DNA of 64,000 bases from Escherichia coli (GTDB taxonomy: Bacteria; Pseudomonadota; Gammaproteobacteria; Enterobacterales; Enterobacteriaceae), in the NCBI RefSeq assembly GCF_044324875.1, contig NZ_CP172185.1. The stretch is one strand, 5' to 3'. The first letter of the stretch is position 1. Every line of letters starts with the position of its first letter. The notes beneath the pieces were generated by a model. That model saw only the letters and a list, made by a program, of their open reading frames with translations. It was not told the DNA's origin and did not search any database. Positions 9,226 to 41,189 of this stretch are shown here, piece by piece. Position numbers and translations under genes: made by a program.

Positions 9226-9579
9226 CTATTCGTCGATGATTGACTCGAATCCGCCATAAATCATTCGCTTACCATCAAACGGCATGGACTCGCCGAACTC
9301 TTTCATCCGTGGGTCCGACATCATCTTTTGATTAGCAGCGTCGCGGACCTCTTTTGAGGGGTATTCAATCCAGCTAAAGACAACCTCTTCATTCTCTTCA
9401 GCTTTTACCGCCATACGAAAATCGGTCACTTTGCCATCAGGTACATCGCTGGCCCAGCATTCGACAATACGAAGCGCGCCAAACTCTTTAAACAATGGCG
9501 CAGCCTTAGCAGCCATTTCCCGATAGGCATCCTTTTTATCGGCAGGAACGGCAACCACAAAACCATCAACATACTTCAT
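9226..9579 (-). CDS. ybaA: YbaA, DUF1428 family protein
   Basis: 117-aa ORF MKYVDGFVVAVPADKKDAYREMAAKAAPLFKEFGA... Confidence 0.9.
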   Translation of the reverse strand: MKYVDGFVVAVPADKKDAYREMAAKAAPLFKEFGALRIVECWASDVPDGKVTDFRMAVKAEENEEVVFSWIEYPSKEVRDAANQKMMSDPRMKEFGESMPFDGKRMIYGGFESIIDE

Positions 9580-9689
9580 CAGACATACCTCCGAAGCGTA
9601 CTGCGCAGCCAGACAATTCTTGCGACGTCAGTTGTGGTTAAAGTTTAGCCATATTGGGATTTTTTGACGAAACGGGGGGAGGCAGAAAT

Positions 9690-9803
9690 GGGTGGGGGCC
9701 CTGCCAGCTACATCCCGGCACACGCGTCATCTGCCTTGGCTGCTTCCTTCCGGACCTGACCTGGTAAACAGAGTAGCGTTGCGGGAGAACCAACAGAGCC
9801 CCC
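9690..9803 (-). ncRNA. ffs: 4.5S RNA, signal recognition particle RNA
   Basis: Reverse complement of 9690-9803 reads GGGGGCTCTGTTGGTTCTCCCGCAACGC...GGCAGGGCCCCCACCC, the 114-nt E. coli 4.5S RNA as recalled; located between ybaA and atl as in K-12. Confidence 0.93.
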
Positions 9804-9879
9804 ATTGAGAGCGTTGAGAACCAACGCGCAGGCGCATTATCACTGCTGCCCCGGCTAATTGCAACCCATTGCGTGCCGG

Positions 9880-10269
9880 ATGCTGGTTTCTTGCGCAATG
9901 CGACTTCACTCGGGCGTTTTTCCAGATTATGCTGAAAAATTACCTCAGGAAGAAAAGATGGAAAAAGAAGATTCATTTCCCCAACGCGTCTGGCAAATCG
10001 TCGCCGCTATTCCCGAAGGCTATGTCACCACTTACGGTGATGTGGCGAAACTGGCAGGATCGCCCCGCGCCGCGCGCCAGGTGGGCGGTGTGTTAAAGCG
10101 TCTCCCTGAAGGCAGCACCTTGCCCTGGCACCGGGTGGTTAATCGCCACGGCACAATTTCGCTAACCGGACCGGATTTACAGCGTCAACGACAGGCATTA
10201 CTGGCAGAAGGTGTGATGGTATCGGGAAGCGGGCAAATCGACTTGCAGCGTTATCGCTGGAACTACTAA
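9880..10269 (+). CDS. atl: Atl (YbaZ) alkyltransferase-like DNA-binding protein
   Basis: ORF 9859..10269 (TTG in track) trimmed to ATG 9880, MLVSCAMRLHSGVFPD..., 129 aa. Confidence 0.88.
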   Translation: MLVSCAMRLHSGVFPDYAEKLPQEEKMEKEDSFPQRVWQIVAAIPEGYVTTYGDVAKLAGSPRAARQVGGVLKRLPEGSTLPWHRVVNRHGTISLTGPDLQRQRQALLAEGVMVSGSGQIDLQRYRWNY

Positions 10270-11088: not shown

Positions 11089-11949
11089 ATGAGTCAGGCG
11101 CTAAAAAATTTACTGACATTGTTAAATCTGGAAAAAATTGAGGAAGGACTCTTTCGCGGCCAGAGTGAAGATTTAGGTTTACGCCAGGTGTTTGGCGGCC
11201 AGGTCGTGGGTCAGGCCTTGTATGCTGCAAAAGAGACCGTCCCTGAAGAGCGGCTGGTACATTCGTTTCACAGCTACTTTCTTCGCCCAGGCGATAGTAA
11301 GAAACCGATTATTTATGATGTCGAAACGCTGCGTGACGGTAACAGCTTCAGCGCCCGCCGGGTTGCTGCTATTCAAAACGGCAAACCGATTTTTTATATG
11401 ACTGCCTCTTTCCAGGCACCAGAAGCGGGTTTCGAACATCAAAAAACAATGCCGTCCGCGCCAGCGCCTGATGGCCTGCCTTCGGAAACGCAAATCGCCC
11501 AATCGCTGGCGCACCTGCTGCCGCCAGTGCTGAAAGATAAATTCATCTGCGATCGTCCGCTTGAAGTCCGTCCGGTGGAGTTTCATAACCCACTGAAAGG
11601 GCACGTCGCAGAACCGCATCGTCAGGTGTGGATCCGCGCAAATGGTAGCGTGCCGGATGATCTGCGCGTTCATCAGTATCTGCTCGGTTACGCTTCTGAT
11701 CTTAACTTCCTGCCGGTAGCTCTACAGCCGCACGGCATCGGTTTTCTCGAACCGGGGATTCAGATTGCCACCATTGACCATTCCATGTGGTTCCATCGCC
11801 CGTTTAATTTGAATGAATGGCTGCTGTATAGCGTGGAGAGCACCTCGGCGTCCAGCGCACGCGGCTTTGTGCGCGGTGAGTTTTATACCCAGGACGGCGT
11901 GCTGGTTGCCTCGACCGTTCAGGAAGGGGTGATGCGTAATCACAATTAA
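11089..11949 (+). CDS. tesB: Acyl-CoA thioesterase II
   Basis: ORF 11005..11949 trimmed to ATG 11089, [31 protein letters not shown]..., 286 aa. Confidence 0.95.
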
Positions 11950-11954
11950 AAAAA

Positions 11955-11988
11955 TAGCCGGAGGTGAAAACCGTCCGGCTGTTTTTTG
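11955..11988. terminator. Bidirectional rho-independent terminator between convergent tesB and amtB
   Basis: agccgga...tccggct stem flanked by an A-run upstream and TTTTTT downstream. Confidence 0.7.
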
Positions 11989-21848: not shown

Positions 21849-22092
21849 AGCGCAATAACCTTACGTTGTTTTTATAAAAACTGTTATAAGTGCAAAATGG
21901 CATCTGAATCGATCGCAGTTTGGCATTCGAATCGATCATGATTTGGCATCCATCTCCGATCACAGTTTGGCATCACAATCGATCACGATTTGGCATGCTT
22001 CCGATCATTGATTGGCATCCTGCCAGTCACTCCGGGAATTAACTCTTTTCACCACAGTCTCCATTGCCGTGTTTAAACCAGTGGAGACGTCA

Positions 22093-23658
22093 ATGTCCAG
22101 AAAGAGAAAATCCAGGAGCACTATGGAAACCTGTTTTAAGATCCTTCAGCTCAAGTTCGACAAGAAGCTGACTAACCGTTGTATCGGACTGACGTTACAC
22201 ATCAGCGCCTCAACCGTTTTTGAGGTTCTTGCCCGCTTCAAAGCCTCTTCTCTGTCATGGCCATTACCTGCTGATATATCCCATGACACGCTGGAGAAAC
22301 TCATTTTTCCGCCCAAAGACACCTTTGCATCAGAGCTTGTAATGCCTGACATGTTGTACTTCGATACGGAAATGAGAAAACCAGGTGTGACGCGGCAACT
22401 GTTGTGGATGGAATACAAGGCACAGGCGGGTAACAAAGCGATGGGATACTCGCACTTCTGCCGTTGCTACCGGGAGTGGAAAAAAACGCGACGTCTCTCC
22501 ATGCGCCAGGAGCATCGTGCCGGCGAAAAGCTTTTTATCGACTTCTGTGGTCCTACGGTTCCTGTTATTAATCCGGACACCGGTGAGATACGCCGCGTGG
22601 CAATCTTCGTGGCCGTAATGGGGGCGTCCAACTATACCTACGTTGAAGCGTGCGAAGGTCAGGACATGATGTCATGGTTAAATGCCCACAGCCGTTGCCT
22701 GACCTTCCTGGGCGGCGTACCGAAGCTGCTCATCCCCGATAACCTCAGAAGCGCAGTGAAAAAGGCCGATCGATATGAGCCTGTCATCAACGACAGTTAT
22801 CAGGCACTGGCTGAGCACTATGGCACGGTTATCATCCCGGCCCGACCACGCAAACCTAAAGATAAACCAAAAGCAGAAAACGGCGTCCTCATCGTTGAAC
22901 GATGGCTTCTTGCCCGCATCCGTAATGAAACCTTCCACACGCTCAGGGCGCTGAATGCGCGCCTTAGGGAGTTACTGACAGACATGAATAACCGGCCAAT
23001 GAAGGGGTACGGCAATCAAACCCGTGCAGAACGCTTCCGCATACTGGATGCGCCAGCACTCTCTCCGCTGCCTCTGGCACCTTATGAATACACGGAATAC
23101 AAAGCTGTGAAGGTTGGCCCTGACTACCACGTTGAATATGCCCGTCACTGGTACTCCGTTCCACACGAACTGGTCGGTCAGCGTCTGTCACTGAAGGCGG
23201 GGCAGTCGGTGGTACAGCTCTGGCACAAGGGGCAGTGTGTGGCGCAACATCCGCGCAGCACACATGAATATAAACACACAACCAATCCGCTTCACATGCC
23301 AGAGCGCCACCGGCAGCACGGGACATGGACACCGGAACGCCTGATCGAGCAGGGAAAACGTACGGGCCCGTCCACAGGCCGGGTGGTTGAATCCATGCTG
23401 AAGGCAAAACCCCATCCGGAACTGGCTTATCGTGCAGTTCTGGGGCTGCTGGCACTTCAGAAAAAATACGGCCCGGAACGGCTGGAAAAGGCCTGTTACG
23501 TTGCCCTGCACTATAACGCCCCTGACAGACGCTTTATCGACAATCTGCTGCGTCACCATCGGGAGAACCTGGAGCTTCCATTATCCCGCCAGGGCGAACA
23601 ACATCCGGCATATGCTTCAGAGCATGAAAACCTGCGTGGTCCGGGCTACTACCACTGA
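22093..23658 (+). CDS. istA: IS21-family transposase IstA
   Basis: ORF 22012..23658 trimmed to ATG 22093 (ggagacg SD-like sequence upstream); large transposase-sized protein, IstA-like by pattern; start could instead be ATG 22123. Confidence 0.8.
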   Translation: MSRKRKSRSTMETCFKILQLKFDKKLTNRCIGLTLHISASTVFEVLARFKASSLSWPLPADISHDTLEKLIFPPKDTFASELVMPDMLYFDTEMRKPGVTRQLLWMEYKAQAGNKAMGYSHFCRCYREWKKTRRLSMRQEHRAGEKLFIDFCGPTVPVINPDTGEIRRVAIFVAVMGASNYTYVEACEGQDMMSWLNAHSRCLTFLGGVPKLLIPDNLRSAVKKADRYEPVINDSYQALAEHYGTVIIPARPRKPKDKPKAENGVLIVERWLLARIRNETFHTLRALNARLRELLTDMNNRPMKGYGNQTRAERFRILDAPALSPLPLAPYEYTEYKAVKVGPDYHVEYARHWYSVPHELVGQRLSLKAGQSVVQLWHKGQCVAQHPRSTHEYKHTTNPLHMPERHRQHGTWTPERLIEQGKRTGPSTGRVVESMLKAKPHPELAYRAVLGLLALQKKYGPERLEKACYVALHYNAPDRRFIDNLLRHHRENLELPLSRQGEQHPAYASEHENLRGPGYYH

Positions 23659-23674
23659 CAGAAGGAACAACAGT

Positions 23675-24430
23675 ATGAGTGATAACCTGTTAAACAAACT
23701 GACCCAACTGAAACTCCCGGCGATGGCCGGGAGCCTGATACGGCAGCGGGAAACGCCTCAGACCTACGACGAACTGTCGTTCGAGGAAAGGCTGACGCTG
23801 CTGGTTGATGACGAGCTTCTGAGCAGGGAAAACAGCCGTGTGGCACGGTTGAGAAAAAATGCCGGCCTGAAATACCAGGCAACACCGGAAGGGCTGCGCT
23901 ATCCGGCCTCAAGAGGTCTGCGGGCTGAACAGATGAGAGAACTGCTGAACGGCCACTACATAACCCACAGGAAAAACCTGCTGATAACCGGTCCGACAGG
24001 ATGTGGCAAGAGCTGGATAGCCAATGCGCTGGGCGAACAGGCATGTCGACAGAAACACAGCGTCCGGTACTGTAGAACCGGGCGATTACTGGAACAACTG
24101 GCTCAGGGACGTGTTGATGGCAGCTGGCTGAAATATCTGAAACAGTTGCAAAAAATACAGGTTCTAATCCTGGACGATCTGGGGCTGGAACAGTTAAGTA
24201 ACGCCCAGTGTAATGACCTTCTGGAGCTCATAGAGGATCGTTACGGACAAAGCAGCACGATAGTGGTAAGCCAGTTCCCGGTAGATAAATGGCATGGTCT
24301 GATGGAGAACCCAACAACAGCAGATGCCATCCTGGACAGACTGGTACATAACTCACACCGAGTGGTCCTTCAGGGAGAGTCACTGAGGAAAAATCCCCCG
24401 GTAGTGGAAAGCAGCGAAAAAACGCGTTAA
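23675..24430 (+). CDS. istB: IS21-family ATP-binding helper protein IstB
   Basis: ORF 23432..24430 trimmed to ATG 23675 (aagga SD), 251 aa; Walker A GPTGCGKS and Walker B VLILDDLG; 16 bp after the istA stop. Confidence 0.85.
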   Translation: MSDNLLNKLTQLKLPAMAGSLIRQRETPQTYDELSFEERLTLLVDDELLSRENSRVARLRKNAGLKYQATPEGLRYPASRGLRAEQMRELLNGHYITHRKNLLITGPTGCGKSWIANALGEQACRQKHSVRYCRTGRLLEQLAQGRVDGSWLKYLKQLQKIQVLILDDLGLEQLSNAQCNDLLELIEDRYGQSSTIVVSQFPVDKWHGLMENPTTADAILDRLVHNSHRVVLQGESLRKNPPVVESSEKTR

Positions 24431-24545
24431 AAAGCGGTAGAAAAAGTTAAGTTCCCGGTTGATCGAATGGATGCGAATCGCTGATCGGACTTCGATGCCA
24501 ATCCGTGATCGAATAGAGCGGAATACGCAATAAGTACAGAGGTCA

Positions 24546-30018: not shown

Positions 30019-30149
30019 AGAGCTCTCTCTTAGTTTAATTTCCGCCAGGTAATCAGATGACACGACTGTGCTTCACGCCATCTATTAACATGTACGTCAG
30101 TATATGGGGATGTTTCCCCCACATTCAACGCCGAGAATAGAGGAAAAAT

Positions 30150-30178
30150 TAAAGGGGAGATAAAATCCCCCCTTTTTG
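30150..30178 (-). terminator. Rho-independent terminator after clpX
   Basis: On the reverse strand, gggggattttatctcccc hairpin followed by a U-rich tract, about 30 bp after the clpX stop. Confidence 0.65.
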
Positions 30179-30205
30179 GTTAACTAATTGTATGGGAATG
30201 GTTAA

Positions 30206-38252: not shown

Positions 38253-41189
<2,937 letters not shown>

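Follow-up and report, generated by a model that had tools for sequence, protein, structure and literature searches.

The analysed stretch of Escherichia coli DNA (64 kb; hereafter referred to as the window) harbors at positions 9690-9803, on the minus strand, the gene ffs for 4.5S RNA, the RNA subunit of the E. coli signal recognition particle (SRP), an assignment that we regard as practically certain. The gene is located between ybaA and atl/ybaZ, and its mature product, its upstream signals, its two protein-coding neighbours and the open reading frames (ORFs) that cross it are arranged as follows:

9690..9803, minus strand: mature 4.5S RNA (ffs), 114 nt; match to K-12 b0455 and a single long hairpin as minimum free energy (MFE) structure
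9699..9795, minus strand: core of the Rfam family RF00169, equal to the extent of the PGAP feature for ffs (SRP_RNA, 97 nt, in strain 06-00048)
9738..9761, minus strand: domain IV core, nt 43-66 of the RNA, GGUCAGGUCCGGAAGGAAGCAGCC, including the GGAA tetraloop; apical loop in the predicted fold
9690..9693, minus strand: unpaired 3' overhang ACCC of four nt in the predicted fold
9804..9829, minus strand: 5' leader of the precursor, approximately 22-26 nt, removed by RNase P according to the literature; placed by fold, conservation and published 5' ends
9836..9864, minus strand: putative ffs promoter with -35 hexamer TTGCAA (9864-9859), 17-nt spacer and -10 hexamer GATAAT (9841-9836), from a promoter scan
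9226..9579, minus strand: ybaA (DUF1428), downstream neighbour; Pfam PF07237 (E = 2.3e-48), K-12 and PGAP annotations
9958..10269, plus strand: atl/ybaZ (MGMT-family base-flipping protein), divergent upstream neighbour; Pfam PF01035 DNA_binding_1 (E = 3.9e-27)
9638..9976, minus strand: ORF of 112 aa with ATG start, from the ORF list, judged spurious
9727..9909, minus strand: ORF of 60 aa with GTG start, from the ORF list, judged spurious

The reverse complement of 9690-9803 reads GGGGGCTCTG...GGGCCCCCACCC over its 114 nt (the minus-strand sequence starts with GGGGGCTCTGTTGG and ends with GGCAGGGCCCCCACCC), and all 114 bases are shared with ffs of E. coli K-12 MG1655 (b0455; NC_000913.3, 476448-476561), where the gene is annotated as 'signal recognition particle 4.5S RNA'. 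Judged by this alignment, the window gene is identical to the reference gene and not merely ffs-like: there is no difference to K-12 within ffs, and the four differing positions of the aligned 300-nt intergenic stretch are located in the flanks. Apart from the sequence, the window shares with K-12 the neighbouring genes, promoter and leader, the GGAA-tetraloop hairpin and the ACCC 3' end of the RNA. The Rfam 15 scan of the whole window (both strands, gathering thresholds) resulted in two matches, RF00169 and RF02029; the former (Bacteria_small_SRP) covers 9795..9699 on the minus strand over the full model (1-97) with 68.1 bits against a gathering score of 40 (E = 5.5e-13), which is far beyond chance. 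The first-pass annotation, which had read the reverse complement of 9690-9803 as the 114-nt 4.5S RNA from the sequence alone and had named a covariance-model scan as the check, is thus borne out by the K-12 identity and by the RF00169 match. Its coordinates correspond to the mature RNA as annotated in K-12 and are more accurate than the 97-nt core of Rfam and PGAP, which leaves out the first 8 and the last 9 nt of the mature RNA. No evidence against the identity as ffs was found; the gene is an already known one, and its finding does not by itself add new biology.

The genomic context is that of the species in general. A 361-nt query around ffs had a match in 5424 of the 5426 complete E. coli genomes, typically at a single site in each (median of one), where the matched locus is annotated as 'ffs: signal recognition particle sRNA small type' beside an MGMT-family protein; in strain 06-00048 this 361-nt region is 100% identical to the window, the PGAP feature covering 97 nt of it. 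The gene order atl/ybaZ - ffs - ybaA is common to the window, K-12 and strain 06-00048, so that the intergenic placement between ybaA and atl proposed by the first-pass annotation agrees with the annotations of both strains and with the Pfam matches of the neighbours; pdeB (CSS-motif and EAL domains) was identified by Pfam as a further neighbour. In E. coli, ffs is a single-copy essential gene. The two annotations differ in the length of atl: PGAP assigns 312 nt (ATG at 9958, 103 aa) versus 390 nt in K-12 (ATG at 9880, 129 aa). Cross-genus conservation of the protein begins at the motif M-x-x-x-D-(S/A/T)-FPQRVW, i.e. at the 9958 start, which is preceded by AGGAAG, and in Citrobacter the frame is closed upstream of the equivalent start codon; the sequence comparison therefore suggests that the shorter protein chosen by PGAP is probably the correct one and not that starting at 9880. 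With an atl start at 9958, the divergent spacer between ffs and atl would comprise 154 bp.

According to blastn, the entire window aligns collinearly, in inverted orientation, to K-12 486249-427328 at 97-98.6% identity, apart from three insertions; neither ffh nor ftsY is contained in the K-12 map of the stretch equivalent to the window. The insertions relative to K-12 are an IS21-family element of 2.65 kb between ybaV and fadM (21878-24529), which is also missing from strain 06-00048, a segment of approximately 2 kb between yajO and pgpA (51621-53602), and a segment of approximately 0.7 kb between secF and yajD (60164-60851) with a ParD/ParE pair. The genes carried by them are:

22012..23658, plus strand: istA (rve and Mu-transpos_C_2 domains), within the IS21-family insertion
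23432..24430, plus strand: istB (IstB_IS21, E = 2.4e-60), within the IS21-family insertion
51851..53422, plus strand: gene of a 523-aa pentapeptide-repeat protein, within the yajO-pgpA insertion
60459..60701, minus strand: ParD antitoxin, within the secF-yajD insertion
60185..60499, minus strand: ParE toxin, within the secF-yajD insertion

The MFE structure of the 114-nt RNA is a single long hairpin of -57 kcal/mol (z = -3.15) with a GGAA apical tetraloop at nt 53-56 (9748-9751) and internal loops predicted on both sides of it. This apical part corresponds to domain IV, the region of SRP RNA that is bound by the M domain of Ffh/SRP54 and that is characterised in the family by a GNRA-type tetraloop between a symmetric and an asymmetric internal loop. 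Diverse bacterial phyla share the exact 24-mer of domain IV, which was present in at least 120 stretches of a collection of species-representative genomes. Independently of the Rfam model, the hairpin was examined by aligning 14 gammaproteobacterial homologues and counting the pairs of the E. coli structure: standard pairs were formed in 91.5% of the cells, a value that includes the two apical helices 3 and 4, which are invariant by construction, the loci having been fetched by the domain IV motif. Pairing fell to 36-50% when the 3' partner was slid by 1-3 columns, a comparison that favours the tested structure over its slid controls, since this structure was derived from the window sequence itself. 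Changes on both sides were found in 20 of 42 pairs, and none of 500 shuffles reached any of the five observed covariation measures. Covariation across the 14 Gammaproteobacteria thus supports the predicted long hairpin. The small SRP RNAs of Pseudomonas, Vibrio, Haemophilus and Rheinheimera have the same length register, domain IV 24-mer and long helix as the window RNA; outside of domain IV the helix of the gammaproteobacterial RNAs diverges in sequence (mean column identity of 80%), whereas the long helix itself is maintained by compensatory changes. The domain IV motif is also the same in the large SRP RNA of Bacillus and Paenibacillus (scRNA, approximately 271 nt), the mature form of which comprises 271 nt, includes an Alu domain and results from RNase III processing (PMC1935012 and general knowledge). 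In contrast to this larger, RNase III-processed type, the window RNA belongs to the minimal, RNase P-processed type that consists of the 114-nt hairpin.

Within 9500-10050, the site at 9864-9836 on the minus strand was the sole promoter-like one (9 of 12 matches; shuffled sequences gave 0.3 on average); its -10 hexamer is followed by a GC-rich GCGCC discriminator and ends 7 nt before position -26. According to published RNA-seq data (Gössringer et al. 2017, PMC5499578), the 5' end of pre-4.5S RNA is located 'primarily at -26' and, in minor species, at -127 or -153; the precursor is cleaved by E. coli RNase P (PMC5499578; see also PMC7049720). In the predicted fold of 9580-9827, the leader forms a small hairpin, GCGUUG-GUUCU-CAACGC (9811-9827). 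Across E. albertii, Citrobacter, Enterobacter and Superficieibacter its loop varies but its stem does not, and the TCTCAAT preceding the +1/cleavage site is likewise invariant in these four. Both promoter hexamers and the GCGCC discriminator are kept in Escherichia, Citrobacter, Enterobacter and Superficieibacter. At the other end of the RNA, RNase T has been reported to stop at CC and to leave a 4-nt ACCC overhang on 4.5S RNA (PMC3439924), with which the ACCC overhang in the fold agrees. The sequence signals are present and conserved, and they agree with the published 5' ends and processing; that the TTGCAA-17-GATAAT site acts as the promoter is inferred. Downstream of ffs, the terminator scan identified no canonical intrinsic terminator, and the fold of 9580-9827 contained no convincing G+C-rich hairpin with a U run after the gene; the sole terminator-like site, at 9812..9798, is located in the leader and 5' end and corresponds to chance level (1 found versus 0.8 expected). 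The 4.5S hairpin followed by ACCCAUUU may itself contribute to the end of transcription.

For expression, processing, Ffh binding and function of the window gene, the proposed sequence of events draws on the literature or on what can be inferred from the locus. Most likely, ffs would be transcribed from its own sigma-70 promoter (TTGCAA-17-GATAAT, 9864-9836) into a precursor with a leader of approximately 22-26 nt that carries the small hairpin. RNase P would remove this leader, and exonucleases acting on the 3' end, above all RNase T, would shorten it to the ACCC overhang. The mature RNA is predicted to be one long hairpin whose apical domain IV (GGAA tetraloop and two internal loops) would bind the Ffh M domain, and the resulting SRP would recognise signal sequences on nascent chains and, together with FtsY, deliver the ribosomes to the membrane.

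With regard to other RNA genes, the first-pass annotation had considered ffs to be the only one supportable in the window. This holds with respect to the K-12 RefSeq annotation, which lists no ncRNA other than ffs in the region 421-488 kb, and with respect to tRNA and tmRNA genes, none of which were detected in the window by ARAGORN; it does not hold with respect to the second Rfam match:

30090..30185, plus strand: sraA (RF02029), Rfam 106.7 bits against a gathering score of 56

The sraA match maps to K-12 458721-458816 (minus strand) in the clpX-lon spacer, antisense to both genes, and 5377 E. coli records contain its region at more than 99% conservation, with clpX as the only gene annotated under it; an annotation of sraA itself is absent from K-12 RefSeq and PGAP. 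A table of enterobacterial sRNAs in a review (PMC3384567) places SraA (psrA/t15) between clpX and lon. Read on the other strand, its 3' hairpin AAAGGGGAGAUAAAAUCCCCCCUUUUU has the appearance of the clpX terminator. A permissive Rfam scan (E up to 1) added only sub-threshold matches, all of which were treated as chance or REP sequence: a naRNA4 match at 59631-59667 on the minus strand (40.4 bits versus 59.5, E = 0.001; probably a REP-type element), a Thr_leader-like match at 11902-11988 (28.8 bits versus 55) and a snoRNA-like match (25.7 bits versus 50).

In the 2-kb neighbourhood of ffs, 27 ORFs of at least 30 aa were listed, two of which, with at least 60 aa, are situated directly over the RNA gene; these are the 112-aa and 60-aa reverse-strand ORFs that the first-pass annotation had named and dismissed as spurious. 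Both are present in the ORF list, and their dismissal is upheld by the lack of a family match and of an annotation, by their disruption in relatives and by start codons upstream of the main ffs transcription start: very probably, neither is a gene. No Pfam family was found for either at E values up to 0.1, and neither is annotated in K-12 RefSeq or by PGAP in strain 06-00048. Their frames were followed in five relatives by anchoring them on the ffs 5' end. A real protein-coding gene of 112 aa that overlaps ffs would be in line with the ATG-started frame in the window and K-12 and with open frames of similar length in Citrobacter (117 aa) and Enterobacter (119 aa), but only 59 aa of the frame remain in E. 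albertii, the ffs of which is identical, and in Superficieibacter, with a nearly identical ffs; the argument of missing conservation thus refers to two of the five relatives and is joined by others. The ATG (9976) is positioned at -173 and hence upstream of all reported ffs 5' ends (-26, -127 and -153; PMC5499578), the GGGGAA in front of it abuts the start codon directly and leaves no usable Shine-Dalgarno spacing, the upstream third of the ORF is antisense to atl or the atl 5' region, and another third falls within the -57 kcal/mol hairpin, the conservation of which is explained by RNA covariation. Taken together, a protein-coding function of the 112-aa frame is extremely unlikely. No greater credit can be given to the 60-aa frame as a real small protein, perhaps produced from the minor long ffs precursors: its GTG at -106 is upstream of the main transcription start, although it would fall inside the minor transcripts starting at -127 and -153 (PMC5499578), and the start is kept only in Escherichia among the five relatives compared (frame open in E. 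coli and E. albertii). Citrobacter, Enterobacter and Superficieibacter lack a start codon for it and retain only 29-58 codons, whereas promoter, leader and ffs are conserved there; moreover, the ORF spans promoter and leader and ends within the RNA hairpin. Of the two ORFs, translation is more plausible for that of 60 aa, since transcripts starting at -127 or -153 would include its GTG; that one of the overlapping minus-strand frames is in fact translated from the minor long precursors is nevertheless unlikely, indeed very improbable, in view of the missing conservation outside Escherichia and the missing family match. Both ORFs would rather be frames that happen to be open in GC-rich non-coding and antisense sequence; their middle part is conserved because of the RNA pairing documented by covariation.

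A different doubt concerns whether this is the functional gene at all: it might be a decayed or additional ffs-like copy, such as the att-site duplicate that a mobile element leaves behind. Partial duplicates of this kind are known elsewhere, namely in E. coli 20220828076, where an island has a 25-bp repeat of the ffs 3' end at its distal border, and in Stutzerimonas urumqiensis, with a second ffs-like copy that lacks the native 5' end. The ffs of the window, however, is of full length and identical to that of K-12, occupies the ancestral position atl-ffs-ybaA with intact promoter and leader, and is the sole occurrence of the sequence within the 64 kb; in addition, no integrase or island adjoins it, as ybaA follows after 110 bp. 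The probability of a decayed or additional copy is accordingly vanishingly small, and the locus is treated here as the functional, single ffs gene.

In other genomes, ffs is an integration target. In E. coli 20220828076, an island of approximately 31 kb with a site-specific integrase is inserted between ffs and ybaA; from the annotated ffs feature to the start of the integrase gene there are 109 nt (approximately 100 nt from the mature 3' end), and the island contains an IS26-bounded multi-resistance region with floR, qnrS2, aac(6')-Ib-cr, blaOXA-1, catB3, arr and qacEdelta1. It is flanked by a 25-bp direct repeat that consists of the last 21 nt of ffs and ATTT (corresponding to window positions 9686-9710, minus strand), with copies at 9251-9275 of locus L126 and at 40423-40447 of the joined L126/L127 sequence. 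Since the repeat flanking the island is the ffs 3' end with ATTT, the ffs 3' end acts as attB. The junction between ffs and the island was encountered in 2 of 5426 E. coli genomes and is therefore not widespread; in the window the site is unoccupied. Certain Tn7-like elements reportedly use ffs as an integration target as well. For an Enterococcus phage, ffs is described as the integration target in PMC12540744. Stutzerimonas urumqiensis (NZ_RBZQ01000004.1) possesses two ffs-like copies approximately 12 kb apart on one scaffold (L112:2829-2942 and L113:832-945), the second of which lacks the native 5' end and shows ACGAGGGCTGCC in place of GGTGGCCCTGCC; this two-copy pattern fits that expected for an element integrated into ffs.

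If, against expectation, one of the overlapping frames were translated, the ffs locus would have a dual function in Escherichia. For the preferred reading as the known 4.5S RNA gene, the significance of the locus is one of annotation quality only: ORF lists that are compiled mechanically yield false genes in intergenic DNA, and the 97-nt feature of Rfam and PGAP under-calls the mature 114-nt RNA. As false ORFs cover an essential RNA gene here, a search with RNA models should precede any interpretation of ORFs.
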